Of a stretch of 64,000 nt of DNA, positions 19,321 to 62,934 are shown piece by piece. Made by a program: the position numbers and the translations under genes. This stretch comes from Mobula hypostoma (lineage: Eukaryota): the NCBI RefSeq assembly GCF_963921235.1, contig NC_086097.1, forward strand, positions 164,178,001 through 164,242,000. The letters are read 5' to 3'. The notes beneath the pieces were generated by a model. That model ran no database searches. It saw only the letters and a list, made by a program, of their open reading frames with translations, and was not told the DNA's origin. Each line of letters opens with the position of its first letter. The first letter of the stretch is position 1.

Positions 19321-19933
19321 GGGTGGGCAATAAAGGATAAACTCTGAAACCCAAAGAGATAAAAAGTCAGGAAGATTTCTATATGTGAGAGCTTTCGGCA
19401 GAGCCCATGAACATCCTATCCCTGAGTATTGCTTTGTAATTCAGCTCTAGCATCAGTTATATAAGTGCAGAAATTGATGTTAGTGTAAATTATTCCAGGA
19501 TAGTGTTGTTGGATGCAACCATCGCAAGATTAATGGGACAATGTTTGCTTGCCTACACCTGTCCTTGACATAGAATCTATATATAGTGGTCAGGAGCCCT
19601 GCTCATGTGCTTTTGCACTCAATTCAAATTGTGTTTGAAGTAATGAGTCACATTACGAGCCACACGAGGTGCTGTGTCACAGACTTCCATGTTGTCACTC
19701 CCGAAGGAGGAGCTGCCATGAAGAAAAGCATACTCATTTAAAGGCAACTTAAGTCATCAGTTTTTATCCCATGTTCTGGGTTTTTGGCTGCTGCTGTGAT
19801 GCACCAGCAGATCAAACAAACAAGAGTACAGGCTCAAACAACAGGAATTCTGCAGATGCTGGAAATTCAAGCAACACACATAAAAGTTGCTGGTGAACGC
19901 AGCAGGCCAGGCAGCATCTCTAGGAAGAGGTGC

Positions 19934-19969
19934 AGTCGACGTTTCAGGCCGAGACCCTTCGTCAGGACT
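19934..19969 (-). ncRNA. Minimal type I hammerhead ribozyme, intact core
   Basis: Minus strand reads AGUC-CUGACGA-AGG(gucucgg)CCU-GAAAC-GUC-GACU: stem I, CUGANGA, stem II, GAAA, palindromic stem III, GUC cleavage triplet. Confidence 0.85.
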
Positions 19970-19983
19970 AACTTCCTTCAGTT

Positions 19984-20019
19984 AGTCCCGACGAAGGGTC
20001 TCAGCCTGAAACGTCGACT
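19984..20019 (+). ncRNA. Minimal type I hammerhead ribozyme with core variant CCGACGA
   Basis: agtc-ccgacga-agg(gtctcag)cct-gaaac-gtc-gact. Conserved core U changed to C. Confidence 0.7.
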
Positions 20020-20066
20020 GCACCTCTTCCTGGAGATGCTGCCTGGCCTGCTGCGTTCAAGAGTAC

Positions 20067-20577
20067 AGGCTGATTTATACTTCTGTGTCAACTCGATGCC
20101 GTAGGTACGGCGTAGGCACGAACCCTACGCAGTGACTACACAGATCCCTATGCCGTAGCCTGACACACACTTCTCCCAAAATGTAACTATGCGTCGCGGC
20201 AGTGCAGAACACAACAGCAGTGATTGGTCCGCTTGGTAGCATCGCATTTCCTCCTACGCTGCAATAGCTTCCCATTGGGCGACTGAAGGGCAGGGAAGGA
20301 ACTCCGGCTGCAATGCTTTCCGTAAAGCTTTACGGACTTCCGAAATTATGGAGGACACATTTCACTTTTATGAAAAAAGATGCTCGTTTCTTACTTACCC
20401 CGAGAAAGACTACCAAGACCATGAAGCCTTGCACGGGCAGGTGTGTGCGCATGCGTGACATGCGCGAATTGCAGAGCGATGCAGACACACCAACGCACAA
20501 ATATAAAGGCTCACAATATGCATAGGTCACTTGCGTAGGTTATGGCGTTGAGTTGTTGTAGAAGTATAAATCAGCCT
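20067..20577. mobile_element. Non-autonomous DNA transposon (MITE), probably PIF/Harbinger
   Basis: Perfect 18-bp TIRs aggctgatttatacttct (20067-20084) and agaagtataaatcagcct (20560-20577), extendable imperfectly. CpG-rich interior, no credible coding capacity. Confidence 0.8.
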
Positions 20578-31249: not shown

Positions 31250-31396
31250 CCACCAATTCTGATTAGACACATTGCTGGAGTTTTTGGCACATAATTTCCA
31301 CCAATTTGGATTGGACTCATTGCTGGAGCTTTTGGCACATAATTTCCACCAATTCGGATTGGACTCATTGCTGGAGCTTTTGGCACATAACTTCCA
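31250..31396. repeat. 48-bp tandem repeat, 3 copies
   Basis: Unit ccaccaatttggattggactcattgctggagcttttggcacataattt starting at 31250, 31298 and 31346. Confidence 0.95.
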
Positions 31397-31904
31397 AGTA
31401 ACCCACATTCCAATCCTCACTAACTGTGTACACTGGCTGCCTGACATTTCCATACTCATGACTCACCGCCTTTCTGCTGAAATCAGAAGATGAATGCACT
31501 CCTTGTAACACAATTGGATAATTCTCCTGATAGTTCTCCCCTTGTCTGATATATTGATTACCAGTAAATAAAATTGTTTTTAAAACTCATCTAATCTGTT
31601 AGCCAGGTAATTTTCCTCTCAGATTTTTCATTGCAGTCTTTGATAGATTTGTCCTTCATCCCTGATGAATCCATGTCACACCAAGAAGATTGATCGCCCC
31701 ACAAGGCATCTGTGTTGGTGAAAGGCCTTTGTAAAACTTACTGCTTTCAAGTTGAACAGGAGTAAATCTAGTATACCTTTGAGTAACTTTGTTCCTTACC
31801 CACAATGTACTGACGATCAGTGATAGACAGCCTTTATTATTGCAACATACATCAAAGTTGCTGGTGAACGCAGCAGGCCAGGCAGCATCTATAGGAAGAG
31901 GTGC

Positions 31905-31940
31905 AGTCGACGTTTCAGGCCGAGACCCTTCGTCAGGACT
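31905..31940 (-). ncRNA. Minimal type I hammerhead ribozyme, intact core
   Basis: Minus strand agtc-ctgacga-agggtctcggcct-gaaac-gtc-gact. Confidence 0.85.
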
Positions 31941-32236
31941 AACTGAAGGAAGAGTGAGTAAGGGATTTGAAAGCTGGAGGGGGAGGGGGAGATGCAAAAT
32001 GATAGGAGAAGACAGGAGGGGGAGGGATGGAGCCGAGAGCTGGACAGGTGATAGGCAGAAGGGGATACGAAAGGATCATGGGACAGGAGGTCCGGGAAGA
32101 AAGACGGGGGGGGGTGACCCAGAGGATGGGCAAGAGGTATATTCAGAGGGACAGAGGGAGAAAAAGGAGAGTGAGAGAAAGAATGTGTGCATTAAAAAGA
32201 GTAACAGATGGGGTACGAGGGGGAGGTGGGGCCTAG

Positions 32237-34027
32237 CGGAAGTTAGAGAAGTCAATGTTCATGCCATCAGGTTGGAGGCTACCCAGACGGAATATAAGGT
32301 GTTGTTCCTCCAACCTGAGTGTGGCTTCATCTTTACAGTAGAGGAGGCCGTGGATAGACATGTCAGAATGGGAATGGGATGTGGAATTAAAATGTGTGGC
32401 CACTGGGAGATCCTGCTTTCTCTGGCGGACAGAGCGTAGATGTTCAGCAAAGCGGTCTCCCAGTCTGCGTCGGGTCTCACCAATATATAAAAGGCCACAT
32501 CGGGAGCACCGGACGCAGTATATCACCCCAGTCGACTCACAGGTGAAGTGATGCCTCACCTGGAAGGACTGTTTGGGGCCCTGAATGGTGGTAAGGGAGG
32601 AAGTGTCCTGAGCGGATAAAGTCGTTGATAGTGTGGGAGACAATGGCCTGGTGCTCCTTAGTGGGGTCACGATCGAGGGGTAAATAAGAGGAGGTATCCG
32701 CGAGTTGTCGCTGTGCCTCGGCAAGGTAGAGGTCAGTACGCCAGACTACAACAGCACCCCCCTTATCAGCGGGTTTAATAATAATGTTAGGATTAGTGCG
32801 GAGGGAGCGGAGAGCAGAGCGTTCCGAAGGAGTGAGGTTGGAATGGGGACAAGGTGCGGTGAAGTCGAGACGGTTGATGTCCCGTCGGCAGTTGGCAATA
32901 AAGAGATCCAGAGCAGGCAGAAGACCAGAGCGGGGTGTCCATGAAGAAGAGGAGGGATGAAGACGGGAGAAGGGGTCATCGGTGGGGGTGGAAGAGTCCT
33001 TGCCGAAGAAGTAGGCTCGGAGACGGAGACGGCGGAAGAAAAGTTCCGCATCATGGCGAACACGGAACTCGCTGAGGTGTGGGCGAAGGGGGACAAAGGT
33101 GAGGCCCTTACTGAGAACAGAGCGTTCTGCCTCCGACAGTTGAAGGTCGGAGGGGATGGTAAAGACCCGGCACGGATGAGAGCTGGGATCAGAGGGGGGA
33201 GGGGGGAGGCTGGGGGTGTCAGTGGAGGGGGGAGGGTTGGGGTGAGAGGAAGATGGAGCCTCTGAGGGCCCAGGAGCTGACGGTGGGATCTGAGGAAGAC
33301 GGGGCTGCGGAGTGGTGGTGGGGGAAGGGGAGACGGGAGTCACAATAGCAGCACATAAAGACCCGGCCTGGAGTTCAAGGCTGGAGTCGCAGTTGGTGGT
33401 TGCGCGATCGCTTTGAATGTCTCCATGGTCGTTGCTGGAGTCCGGGTTTTGAATATGTCCTGAGGTGTTGGAGCCGCCGAGACCAACGGCAGGGGCCGCA
33501 ACCGAAAGTTCATGCCTGCTAGCGTCGGGGCCGGCAGGCTCTGCAGTCCGTAGATGTAAGATCTTGCGATCTTTGCCTAACATGACAAAGTCAAAGAAAC
33601 GGCGATTGCAGGCGTGGATCCGACGGAGGATGAAATAGCGGGTAGGACCATTACAGACGGCGAAGAAAGTGTCCCGAAGGTGTGGAAGGGTCTGGGATAG
33701 GGACACCAAGTACCTCCTCATGGCGGAGAGCGTGGCTTTCAGAGCTTGACGGGAGAAGCGGCGAGAGGCAGAGTCAATGAAATGTGAGTACCTGGGATCC
33801 TCAGAAGGTCCAAATTGAGAGGCTTGGAAACGAATCCTAAAGCCAACTGGAGTAAGTTGGCGACGGAGGCACGTTCCAAGAAAGGATACATGGCAGTGAT
33901 AGCAAGTTTGAGTCAAAGTCTGGTCGAAAAGTTGAAGAGCCGAAGAAATCACAGATGGGGAGCAGTGAGAGATGGTTTCACTGAACTCCCGTCGAAGAGA
34001 GGATCTAAACTTCTTCGGTGTAGGCAT
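32237..34027 (-). pseudogene. PLE ORF with internal RT deletion: N-terminal domain fused out of frame to GIY-YIG
   Basis: ATG at 34027 (MPTPKK...), N-terminal motif HVSFLGTC...LTPVGFR, then IIKPADKGGAVVVW. Junction near 32606 jumps to SSLTTIQGPKQ (GIY-YIG region) in another frame, and no RT catalytic motif is present. Confidence 0.85.
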
Positions 34028-34161
34028 CACCGGAAGAGGCTTCGCAGTAGTGAATTTAAACGCAAACAACAGGAATTCTGCAGATGCTGGAAATTCAAGC
34101 AACATACATCAAAGTTGCTGGTGAACGCAGCAGGCCAGGCAGCATCTATAGGAAGAGGCGC

Positions 34162-34197
34162 AGTCGACGTTTCAGGCCGAGACCCTTCGTCAGGACT
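34162..34197 (-). ncRNA. Minimal type I hammerhead ribozyme, intact core, upstream of the PLE ORF
   Basis: Same motif as 31905-31940. Predicted cleavage between 34166 and 34165, 138 nt before the ATG at 34027. Confidence 0.85.
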
Positions 34198-34488
34198 AAC
34201 TGAAGGAAGAGTGAGTAAGGGATTTGAAAGCTGGAGGGGGAGGGGGAGATGCAAAATGATAGGAGAAGACAGGAAGGGGAGGGATGGAGCCGAGAGCTGG
34301 ACAGGTGATAGGCAGAAGGGGATACGAGAGGATCATGGGACAGGAGGTCCGGGAAGAAAGACGGGGGGGGTGACCCAGAGGATGGGCAAGAGGTATATTC
34401 AGAGGGACAGAGGGAGAAAAAGGAGAGTGAGAGAAAGAATGTGTGCATTAAAAAGAGTAACAGATGGGGTACGAGGGGGAGGTGGGGC

Positions 34489-35360
34489 CTAGCGGAAGTT
34501 AGAGAAGTCAATGTTCATGCCATCAGGTTGGAGGCTACCCAGACGGAATATAAGGTGTTGTTCCTCCAACCTGAGTGTGGCTTCATCTTTACAGTAGAGG
34601 AGGCCGTGGATAGACATGTCAGAATGGGAATGGGATGTGGAATTAAAATGTGTGGCCACTGGGAGATCCTGCTTTCTCTGGCGGACAGAGCGTAGATGTT
34701 CAGCAAAGCGGTCTCCCAGTCTGCATCGGGTCTCACCAATATATAAAAGGCCACATCGGGAGCACCGGACGCAGTATATCACCCCAGTCGACTCACAGGT
34801 GAAGTGATGCCTCACCTGGAAGGACTGTTTGGGGCCCTGAATGGTGGTAAGGGAGGAAGTGTAAGGGCATGTGTAGCACTTGTTCTGCTTACACGGATAA
34901 GTGCCAGGAGGGAGATCAGTGGGGAGGGATGGGGGGGACGAATGGACAAGGGAGTTGTGTAGGGAGTGATCCCTGCGGAGTGCAGAGAGAGGCGGGGAGG
35001 GAAAGATATGCTTAGTGGTGGGATCCCGTTGGAGGTGGCGGAAGTTACGGAGAATAATATGTTGGACCCGGAGGCTGGTGGGGTGGTAGGTGAGGACCAG
35101 GGGAACCCTATTCCTAGTGGGGTGGTGGGAGGATGGAGTGAGAGCAGATGTACGTGAAATGGGGGAGATGCGTTTAAGAGCAGAGTTGATAGTGGAGGAA
35201 GGGAAGCCCCTTTCTTTAAAAAATGAAGACATCTCCCTCGTCCTAGAATGAAAAGCCTCATCCTGAGAGCAGATGCGGCGGAGACGGAGGAATTGCGAGA
35301 AGGGGATGGCGTTTTTGCAAGAGCCAGGGTGAGAAGAGGAATAGTCCAGATAGTTGTGAG
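34489..35360 (-). pseudogene. 5'-truncated PLE ORF C-terminus (RT thumb, Cys linker, GIY-YIG), frame open
   Basis: YLDYSSSHP...IPFSQFLRLRRICS...CKQNKCYTC...VIYCVRCSRCGLLYIGET...RLEEQHLIFRLGSLQPDGMN. Confidence 0.9.
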
Positions 35361-35489
35361 AGCCTTTATTATTGGACGTGTTACCTTGTAATAATTTATT
35401 GTAATACTGGGCTGTTTTGGCTAATCCATGAAGCACAAATATTGCTACTTATTTCACTGCTTTTCAGCTGGGCAGTAGCAGGTCGGTTT

Positions 35490-38465: not shown

Positions 38466-38816
38466 TCTAAAAATGCACTAAACTAGTAAAGATATGCAAA
38501 GTAGGAGATACACCTCACAGACAACTGCAATTATACTGCAAATCAAAACAACCTCAGAGGGAGGTCTTTGCTACCGGAGAATAATGATTAGCTGCACTAA
38601 ACATGATACAGCTGTTACTCTGGCACGAAAGATGATCTACACTTAACCAACATGACAAACCTCACGTGGAAATCAATGAGATTTCGAGTGCGTACTGACA
38701 GTGACTTGCCAGCAACAAAATGCATTGTGTTCAATAATGTATCGGTGTATAGATCCCCTCTGCTCAGGTTGAAAATGAGACGCAAGAGCTTTATAATTAA
38801 TCAGTGGGAACACAGA

Positions 38817-39120
38817 ATAGGATTACACAGAATATACAGCACAAATACTATAAAATAGGATTATGCAGAATATACAGCACAAACGCTATACCATAGGATT
38901 ACACAGAAAATACAGCACAAACACTATACCATAGGATGACGCAGAATATACAACACAAACACTATTCCATAGGATTATGCAGAATATACAGCACAAACGC
39001 TATACCATAGGATGACGCAGAATATACAGTACAAACACTATGCCATAAGATTACACAGAATATACAACACAAACACTATTCCATAGGATTATGCAGAATA
39101 TACAGCATGAACACTATGCC
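38817..39120. repeat. 38-bp minisatellite, 8 copies
   Basis: Unit ataggattatgcagaatatacagcacaaacgctatacc at 38817, 38855, 38893, 38931, 38969, 39007, 39045 and 39083. Confidence 0.95.
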
Positions 39121-39209
39121 AGTGCGTATGATCCTCTTGGCCTCCTACTGATATTTCTCATTTAAATCTATCAGTGTATCACTGCTTATCCAACTGGTCC
39201 TTAAATCGG

Positions 39210-49231: not shown

Positions 49232-49719
49232 GTAATTATCTCTTTCATTAATTGTAGCTGAACTTTGTCATTAATTGTAGCTGTCCATTCCTTTCTGCAG
49301 AACTTTCAAAACATATTCCAAAATATAAACATCTCTTGTCAAGAACTTGTGATTGGAGGTTTGCCACTTATTATTTTAAATTTTAGTTGAAACATTTGGT
49401 ATAGTTGTAAACAGAATTCATGTTCTGTCATGGCTTATTAGCCTTTCCTGTTCAAATTGATAAGTGTCAGTGTCATCTACAAAGAATGACAGTCACAATA
49501 ATATATCCCTAAACACTTTTCTCTAGCAATTATAGTCTTATTATGTTAAGCAATTGCTTTTTAATGAATGCTGACATTCACTTTTGCCAGTTCAGATCAC
49601 CTTATGCTGTTTATAATGTAAAATCAATTGTTTGGCAGGATTTGATCTCACCGATTAGGGAAGGAAAATTAGAGCTAGGTTTTCATAATTCTGTGAGTGA
49701 GCAGGGGAGTGAAAGATAA

Positions 49720-50370
49720 ACATGAGATTTTGCAGATGCTGGAAATCCAGAGCAACACAGACAAAGTGCTGGAGAAATTCAGCAGGTCAGGCAGCATCTG
49801 TGGAAATGAATGACCAGTCAATGTTTTGGGCTGCTCCATTTGCCAAAAGTGTAAATTCCTGCTGGCCAACTACTTCAATTCCTATTCACATTCCCGTTCT
49901 GACTTGTCAGTCCATGGGTTCCTCTTCTGCCACAATAAGGCTGCTCTCGGGGTGGAGGAGCAACACCTCATTCCAACCAGGTAGCCTCCATCCTGATGGC
50001 ATGAACATCAATTCCTCCTTCTGGTAATTTTTTTCTTCTCCCCTCCCCGTCCCTCTTCTTCTATTCCCCACTCTGGTCTCTTACCTTTTCTCCTTGCCTG
50101 CCTATCACCTCCCCCTAGTGTCCATCCTTCTTCCCTTTCTCCCATGGTTTACTTTCCTCTCCAATCAGATTCCTTCTTCTGCAGCCCTTTACCTTTCCCA
50201 CCCACCTGGCTTCACCTATCACCTTGTACTCCTTGCCCTCCTTTTTATTCTAGCGTCTTCCCCCTTCCTTGCCAGTCCTGGAGAAGGGTTTTAGCCTGAA
50301 ACACCAGCTGTTATTCATATTCCCAGATGCTGCACGACCTGCTGAGTTCCTCCAGCATTTTCTGTGTGTC
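49720..50370 (+). mobile_element. Penelope-like element 3' part with inverted terminal segment
   Basis: Inverted terminus 49720-49833, then a decayed GIY-YIG tail (LHPDGMNI), 3' UTR and decayed hammerhead 50274-50310. 14-bp TSD with 2 mismatches (49706-49719 and 50371-50384). Confidence 0.8.
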
Positions 50371-50699
50371 GGAATGAAAGGTAACACTGTGGGCATTAAA
50401 GAGAATCCCTCCCATGTCATGTACCAATGATTGTCTGATTGCTGGAGTGTGCCTTAAATGAAATAATGGATGGTCTTAAATGAACAGTATAAATTAAATA
50501 ATTATCACTTAAGTATTAACGTCCTGCAGGCAGATCTCAGGGTGTGTGAAGCTCTTTTCAACAAATTATGGCAAATCATTTTAAGGCCATTTTCTGAAGA
50601 GTGTTTTTGCTGACTTGCCCTCTGAATAATAAGATCAGAATAGGAGAAGATTTCCTGAGTCCAAGAGCAGAATTTGTTTTATTTTTAAAAACCACATGA

Positions 50700-57471: not shown

Positions 57472-57621
57472 AAAACACAAGAGATTCTGAAGATGCTGGA
57501 AACCCTAAGCAACATGCTCAAGTTCTGATGAAGGGTCATGGCCCAAACGTTGACTGTTTATTTCCTTTCATAGATACTGTTTGACTTGTTGAATTCATCC
57601 AACATATTGTGTGTGTTGCTC
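57472..57621. mobile_element. Old fold-back Penelope-like terminal fragment with decayed hammerhead (57521-57555, +)
   Basis: Inverted terminus gattctgaagatgctggaaaccctaagcaac, then agtt-ctgatga-agggtcatggccc-aaac-gtt-gact and the sense terminus. Confidence 0.75.
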
Positions 57622-62058: not shown

Positions 62059-62934
62059 GGGTCCAGGACAAAGGAGATGTCTTCCTTTTTTAAAGAAAGG
62101 GGCTTCCCTTCCTCCACCATTAACTCTGCTCTCAAAGGCATCTCTCCCATTTCACGCAAGTCTGCCCTCACCCCATCCTCCTGCCACCCCACTAGGGATA
62201 GGGACCCCTTGTACTTACCTACCACCCCACCAGCCTCTGGGTCCAACATATAATTCTCCGTAACTTCCGCCACCTCCAAGGGGATCCCAAACTCCAAGCT
62301 CATCTTTCCCTCCCCCCCACTTTCTGCTTTCCGTGGGGATCGCTCCCTACATGACTCCCTTGTCCATTCATACCCCCCCATCCCTTCCCACCAATCCACT
62401 GATCTCCCTCCTGGTACTTATCCTTGTAAGCGCAACAAGTGCTACACATGCCCTTGCACTTCCTCCCTCACCACCATTCAGGGCCCCAGATTGTCCTTCC
62501 AGGTGAGGTGACACTTCACCTGTGAGTCGGCCAGTGTGATATACTGCGTCCGGTGCTCCCGGTGCGGCCTTCTATATATTGGTGAGACCCGACACAGACT
62601 GGGAGACCATTTCGTTGAACACCTATGCTTTGTCTGCCAGAGAAAGCAAGATCTCCCAGTGACCACACATTTTAATTCCACGTCCCATTCCCATTCTGAT
62701 ATGTCCACCGATGGCCTCCTCTACTGTCAAGATGAAGCCACACTTGGGTTGGAGGAACAACACCTTATATTCCGTCTGTGTAGCCTCCTACCTGGTGGCA
62801 TGACCATTGTCTTCTCTAACTTCCATTAATGCCCCACCTCCCCTTTGTACCCCATCCCTTATTTATTTATTACCCCCCCCCCCGTATCTCTCTCTTTTCT
62901 CTCTCTCTGTCCCTCTCACAATCACTCCTTGCCT
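62059..62934 (+). mobile_element. Penelope-like GIY-YIG fragment, truncated before the hammerhead
   Basis: IYCVRCSRCGLLYIGETRHRLGDHF, homologous to the reverse complement of about 34330-35245. Confidence 0.88.

Follow-up and report, generated by a model that had tools for sequence, protein, structure and literature searches.

Three copies of a small hammerhead-like motif lie on the minus strand of a 64,000-nucleotide stretch of Mobula hypostoma DNA (hereafter the window), and they raise the question of whether such ribozymes excise unit-length, possibly circularisable RNA from transcripts of a Penelope-like element (PLE), as had been predicted from the sequence, or whether the element makes another use of them.

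The motif and its host element

A pattern scan of the 64-kb window located the minus-strand core CTGACGA-AGGGTCTCGGCCT-GAAAC exactly at positions 34169-34193, 31912-31936 and 19941-19965. From stem I arm to stem I arm, 37 nt were identical in 34161-34197, 31904-31940 and 19933-19969 of the same strand, in agreement with the original prediction, which had placed identical hammerheads in the region 34027..34205 and at 31905 and 19934. A loose core pattern gave 6 matches in the window where 1.39 were expected, a number reached in none of 100 shuffles, and a family-specific hammerhead pattern gave 5 matches against an expectation of 0.00. Three mutated copies occur elsewhere in the window, all on the plus strand (Table 1). 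The window hammerhead contains the CUGACGA and GAAA boxes and an NUH cleavage triplet, its stem I consists of four Watson-Crick pairs and a U.G pair, and GAAAC runs straight into GUC, leaving the palindrome ACGU with a zero-base loop (15.2-16.2) as stem III, just as foreseen for a minimal type I hammerhead with an AC/GU palindrome. Stem II had been drawn as AGG-loop-CCU; a stem II is indeed present and is better read as an extra A (34186) directly after A9, followed by G10.1.U11.1, G-C, G-C and U.G around the loop CUCG. The 10.1-11.1 pair is a G.U wobble in the three identical window copies, C11.1 makes up 20-31% of family depth, and G.U is found in 1 of 17 relatives. An Rfam scan of the 64 kb, one of the checks advised at the outset, returned no hammerhead match at E<=1 and only two matches, both weak and unrelated; the hammerhead models likely miss the motif because stem III is missing.

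Judged by its sequence, the motif is the minimal hammerhead ribozyme (min-HHR) of Cervera & De la Peña 2014 (PMC4209133). All sequence-defining features in the covered parts of that paper are present, namely CUGANGA plus an extra base, G10.1, GAAAN, a loop-less palindrome, NUH and a stem I of 4-5 bp. The setting is shared too, with a motif in both pseudo-LTRs (pLTRs) of a PLE and very many dispersed truncated copies, and the general connection of PLEs with hammerheads was, as had been said, already known from that work. Published min-HHRs come from Xena, Poseidon and Neptune PLEs of fishes, coelacanth and Xenopus (PMC4209133); unlike the present case, no cartilaginous fish appears in the covered parts of its Fig. 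S3 and Table S1. Other differences from the published examples are the short 4-bp stem II and the family-majority U11.1, where the consensus has C in >80%. Depth also suggests a far higher abundance here (112,105 contigs in one run, which is not a copy number).

The end of the ORF (thumb and nuclease) had its best match in a zebra-shark protein (63%), and the best matches of the N-terminal ORF were ray proteins from Mobula (85%, over a short stretch), Hemitrygon (80%) and Hypanus (64%), so that the placement in a cartilaginous-fish PLE stands and the homologues point to a myliobatiform ray as the likely host. Pfam recognized GIY-YIG on the ORF end with E=5e-4, just below the curated cut-off, and the CCHH residues of the endonuclease are conserved (C193, C196, H215 and H231 in alignment A1). 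The telomerase-like RT has been deleted from the window copy and is present in the close relatives P0070 (85%) and P0012. A CX2-5CxxC linker occurs in Neptune and Nematis and not in Penelope or Poseidon (PMC8557442, in the part covered). The window ORF has a CX4CxxC linker (CKQNKCYTC), which marks the element as Neptune-type; assigned in this way, by linker rather than by RT tree, the host element is a Neptune-type PLE. The "Penelope" family of the original prediction is thus retained in the sense of a PLE, and a Penelope/Poseidon clade was dropped once the linker was found. Neptune is indirectly favored over Nematis by a hammerhead that relatives share with Neptune of A. digitifera. The annotated zebra-shark protein P0001 reads through the element 3' UTR, and back-translation of its residues 509-518, LMKGLRPKRQ, would recover this hammerhead, there with N7=U and C11.1.

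Table 1. Coordinates of the hammerhead motifs and element copies in the window
Feature	Coordinates	Strand	Remarks
Minimal type I hammerhead, copy 1	34161..34198	-	C3 at 34193; extra A at 34186; predicted cut between 34166 and 34165
Minimal hammerhead, copy 2, identical	31904..31941	-	Predicted cut between 31909 and 31908; element end 66 nt beyond
Whole PLE insertion: 5'-truncated unit, then RT-deleted unit, in partial tandem	31842..35360	-	Target-site duplication (TSD); 765-nt repeat
TSD, 5' side, 13 bp (14 with one ambiguous C)	35361..35373	-	Word found only twice in the window
TSD, 3' side	31829..31841	-	Word found only twice in the window
5'-truncated ORF end: RT thumb, CX4CxxC linker, GIY-YIG endonuclease with CCHH, stop	34489..35360	-	
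3' UTR / pseudo-LTR	34058..34488	-	Hammerhead 295 nt past the stop; main cluster of family 3' ends 34058-34064
N-terminal part of the ORF, likely start ATG to deletion	32607..34027	-	ATG at 34027
Internal deletion junction	32598..32607	-	~419 codons gone (RT core and thumb); frameshift
Second endonuclease end and pseudo-LTR	31842..32606	-	Out of frame with the N-terminus
Short terminal fragment with hammerhead copy 3	19835..19973	-	Hammerhead 19933-19970; tail to the main family 3' end
Inverted head-to-head arm	19972..20059	+	Core-mutated hammerhead 19983-20020 (U4 to C)
Older copy: inverted tail piece, endonuclease end, pseudo-LTR	49719..50375	+	Decayed hammerhead 50278-50304
Older inverted fragment	57473..57556	+	Decayed hammerhead 57521-57556 (N7=U, C11.1, G12 lost)
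Older copy, 86% identical: thumb, endonuclease, start of pseudo-LTR	62062..62916	+	Stops before the hammerhead

The tandem insertion and other copies

The predicted cut of copy 1 lies 138 nt upstream of ATG 34027 and 2,257 nt from that of copy 2, which confirms the distances given in the original prediction (138 nt and about 2.26 kb). ATG 34027 aligns to the first residue of four relatives; ATG 34105 was rejected as the ORF start, as it is GTG in 86-96% of family depth. The RNA between the two ribozymes is not, however, the unit-length RNA that had been proposed. Aligned with the full-length relative P0012, the ORF of the deleted unit passes directly from residue 349 to 769, with a frameshift, and the whole RT core is absent. 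With ~419 codons missing, the 2,257-nt spacing is not unit length, and an intact unit of the family would be about 3.5 kb. The 765-nt repeats of the tandem differ from each other at only five positions, which indicates that the insertion is young. Both predicted cut sites are intact within this single TSD-flanked insertion, which ends 66 nt past the second, and this speaks against unit-length excision and suggests that cutting by the ribozyme is rare or needs the help of protein. Moreover, 498 nt of the upstream unit (34863-35360) are absent from the deleted unit, and a 2,257-nt circle was therefore excluded as the template of the insertion.

Partial tandems, inverted arms, tails, TSDs and internal deletions have all been described for PLEs (PMC3846280; PMC8557442), in the parts of these papers that were covered. 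As in Neptune EN+ PLEs (Craig et al., 2021, PMC8557442), the element has a C-terminal GIY-YIG endonuclease with CCHH, the CX2-5CxxC type of linker, partial tandems and head-to-head inverted 5'-truncated arms. The optional 30-40-bp tail of Neptune PLEs has its counterpart in copies that end at the equivalents of 34099 or 34063, 36 nt apart. Unlike those elements, the window copy is without an RT core and its 13-14-bp TSDs lie in non-microsatellite DNA. PAc, a Poseidon element of Anolis (Frangieh et al., 2024, PMC11167929), also has its hammerhead in the pLTR, A/T-rich targets and insertions that end downstream of the hammerhead, as they should if RT begins internally on uncut RNA. PAc is cut 26 nt inside its ORF, whereas here the predicted cut precedes the ATG and the tail stops short of the ORF. 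Tandem type I hammerheads that are thought to act as dimers are shared with non-LTR retrozymes and amphibian satellite 2 (PMC7229834). A retrozyme identity was nevertheless excluded, given that retrozymes are non-coding and below 1 kb (51-972 bp, with circular RNA shown) and the present unit of 2,257 nt has ORF remnants of protein-coding origin and a minimal hammerhead.

The pair of arms at 19835-20059 is flanked by a TSD of 13-14 bp (19822-19834 and 20059-20071). Both outer ends of this head-to-head mini-insertion are element 3' ends, an arrangement consistent with priming from both nicked strands, by analogy with PAc, which extends both strands (PMC11167929, in the part covered). In both young insertions the short element end adjoins the same side of the target site. 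Their TSDs agree at 10 of 13 positions (chance 4.4e-4 for random window pairs; a post hoc comparison with n=2), hinting at a target preference of the nuclease. A target-site consensus built on this likeness was rejected, for the consensus at loose ends of the family is only A-rich, with an agreement of ~0.4. Numerous CR1/LINE-like fragments are scattered throughout the window, and minisatellites with units of 38 nt (38779-39158) and 48 nt (31250-31396) were also observed.

Copy ends, variation and conservation of the hammerhead

In three sequencing runs, 112,105 (X1), 9,304 (X5) and 76,672 (X9) contigs aligned to 34010-34300, numbers that reflect depth and not copy number; the raw-read run X21 had no reads matching this region. 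At 34058-34064 depth drops about 50- to 100-fold, from millions to ~0.15 million, and loose ends peak; the 3' ends of the family thus cluster ~100 nt downstream of the predicted cut site. Most copies are therefore short ends that extend past the cut site and include it uncut, which suggests that the templates were uncut or religated and bears against unit-length excision. Further loose-end peaks at 34161 and 34196/34197 coincide with the two outer stem I edges. Copies in the window likewise start there, those at 19973 and 57521 <=4 nt from such an edge, and the plus-strand arm of the fragment 57473..57556 starts at the 5' arm of stem I. We read the 34161 and 34196-34197 peaks as a mixture of subfamilies that share only the hammerhead and of true 5' breakpoints. 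The predicted cut site does not appear among the 18 loose-end rows listed of 955, which record contig ends and not RNA ends.

Among the variants listed, those in the core are exclusively CpG transitions, G8A at 5.9-6.5% and C17U at 6.9-9.2% in the DNA runs, and CpG decay in the loop is similar (9-11%). Decay of G8 and C17 at loop-like rates is what would be expected of unselected dead copies. The sole non-CpG variant listed inside the hammerhead is U11.1/C (C 20-31%), which keeps the pairing. CpG decay was excluded as the source of U11.1, since U amounts to 69-80% of depth and decay at other CpG sites to ~6-16%; the U share was measured on a U reference, and some bias is possible. In run X5, guessed to be RNA, sense A-to-G changes at 34147, 34149, 34216 and 34223-34225 reached 6-17%, compared with 0.1-3.6% in two DNA runs. 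These changes could be A-to-I editing of element transcripts, with the RNA status of X5 a guess and the individual a different one; X5 also had lower CpG decay than the DNA runs.

The original prediction had named excess conservation of the core as a check, and the outcome differed with evolutionary distance. Within the family, variable non-CpG positions among the variants listed were 1 of 29 in the hammerhead and 23 of 157 outside (p=0.078), and in the DNA runs only, 1 of 29 and 17 of 157 (p=0.19); neither difference is significant. Across relatives the result was positive. They were represented by 95 loci, 80 from metagenomes (the best 80 of 359) and 15 from genome bins, mostly with 35-50% protein identity, and among these loci 52 non-identical nuclease ends had >=350 nt of downstream sequence. 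In 17 of these 52 ends a strict minimal hammerhead was found on the sense strand, at most 600 nt past the nuclease sequence, compared with none antisense, none in equal upstream stretches and 0.0 in shuffles; it was absent from the other 35, several of which have a visibly degenerate motif. Stem II takes 8 distinct forms among the 17 motifs, some of which are not independent of each other. All 17 keep the extra A and the loop-less palindromic ACGU stem III, 16 have G10.1-C11.1, and stems I and II differ in sequence. Retention of the core in distant relatives with varying stems argues that the fold has been selected over long times. One motif type matches the Acropora digitifera "Neptune" entry in the covered parts of Table S1 and Fig. 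S3 of PMC4209133. In 16 of 17 invertebrate-type relatives the hammerhead follows the stop by 91-129 nt, compared with 295 nt here. DNA pattern scans gave no matches in metagenome contigs or viral contigs, and a protein scan of viral contigs found no relatives. Fifteen GTDB bacterial genome or MAG loci (L081-L095) carry animal-type PLE sequence, some with hammerheads, which is probably contamination by host DNA.

Cleavage and the template for reverse transcription

The monomeric hammerhead cannot close stem III, and its minimum free energy (MFE) structure is an inactive fold in which G5-G8 pair with C15.2-C17 in the region of the cleavage triplet. In its sequence context an upstream pyrimidine tract is predicted to sequester the hammerhead core. 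The pairing of two ribozymes, suggested in the original prediction, is not favored either, for the active double hammerhead has a folding energy of -11.5 kcal/mol and the dimer MFE is -30.3 kcal/mol. Nearest-neighbour energies ignore tertiary contacts in the core and understate hammerheads. In the covered parts of the experimental literature, a min-HHR of S. mansoni was inactive as a monomer and weak as dimers (PMC4209133), and 8 of 9 dimer elements of Xenopus were without cleavage in vitro (bioRxiv 10.64898/2026.07.22.740005). The Anolis PLE hammerhead, which shows ribozyme-type C3/G8 rescue, cuts only with protein, and hammerhead mutants still insert in vitro; no RNA-seq ends lie at its cut site, RT starts internally, producing the tail, and uncleaved RNA is the main RT substrate in this one PLE tested in vitro (PMC11167929).

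The window holds a min-HHR fold in the pseudo-LTR of a Neptune-type element, and we consider it probable that its dead copies derive from uncut RNA and that cutting is weak, dimeric or helped by protein. An intact ~3.5-kb element in partial tandem would be transcribed through its own pseudo-LTR, and the RT-EN protein would nick A/T-rich DNA and start reverse transcription internally, ~65-105 nt downstream of the hammerhead. The RT would copy across the uncut site and often terminate prematurely, in some cases where stem I begins on its 5' side, and such stops would account for the great number of short ends with a hammerhead. Only in active master copies would the fold be under selection, with inserted copies decaying neutrally. 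The motif would then probably serve late or gated RNA processing and/or protein recognition, and not routine unit-length excision. Against this reading it can be said that religated circles would also leave intact cut sites in DNA, that the Anolis result concerns the Poseidon clade and not Neptune, that 35 of the 52 related ends are without the strict motif, and that the within-family excess conservation of the hammerhead is not significant.

The first of these objections leads to the route by which tandem transcripts of intact elements form a double hammerhead and are cut to unit length, the products circularize, and more than one round of RT on the circles gives partial tandems, as proposed in PMC4209133 (in the part covered). 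Retention of a palindromic ACGU without loop III in all 17 strict relative motifs favors it, intact sites in DNA fit it as well because religation restores the cut site, and the five repeat differences (2 of 4 substitutions of CpG type) fit decay of identical copies after insertion, on circular and linear templates alike. The exclusion of the 2,257-nt circle counts against it here, though a 3.5-kb circle with a template jump is possible; so do the unfavorable dimer fold and the Xenopus elements that failed to cleave, and we regard this route as unlikely. Its more specific form for rays, in which a protein-assisted double hammerhead cuts ~3.5-kb Neptune tandem transcripts and religated circles are the RT template, appears quite improbable; if true, it would account for partial tandems in which the cut sites are intact, and this extremely abundant family would be the first vertebrate retrotransposon shown to cycle through ribozyme-made circular RNA. 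That the motif is catalytically dead in the family and kept solely as a protein-binding or RT-pausing structure would accord with the G10.1.U11.1 majority (C11.1 just 20-31% of depth), the inactive MFE fold, the copies that begin at the 5' edge of stem I, and Naiads, which thrive without hammerheads (PMC8557442). However, young copies keep all catalytic core bases and the NUH triplet, several published min-HHRs have G.U at 10.1-11.1 (PMC4209133) and the Anolis hammerhead is subject to C3/G8 rescue, which makes a dead motif very doubtful. Finally, the RT-deleted 2,257-nt unit might itself form a non-autonomous mobile family, mobilized in trans like a large retrozyme, as both cis ends and two intact hammerheads have been retained and non-LTR retrozymes have been proposed to stem from PLE pLTRs (bioRxiv 10.64898/2026.07.22.740005). 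But it was seen only once, its fusion to an upstream unit with sequence absent from it can be put down to a single template jump or to deletion at a later time, and internal deletions are common in PLE copies (PMC3846280), so that a mobile deleted unit is extremely improbable.

In the literature we found no description of this ray PLE family, which the supplements of the 2026 preprint may list, and two elasmobranch genome preprints contained no mention of Penelope or ribozyme. In its covered part, that preprint reports retrozymes in one chondrichthyan, PLEs that co-occur with retrozymes, and PLEs in five vertebrate classes (bioRxiv 10.64898/2026.07.22.740005). Motif and architecture are already established, and what is added here is the Neptune assignment, the RT deletion and the insertions copied across intact cut sites. 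The in vivo role of PLE hammerheads has been called unclear (PMC8557442). Here a young insertion was copied across both of its cut sites, which are intact, and most copies of the family end ~100 nt beyond the site; this fits the uncut-RNA template of Anolis, and the abundance of the family would make a ray convenient for end-mapping.
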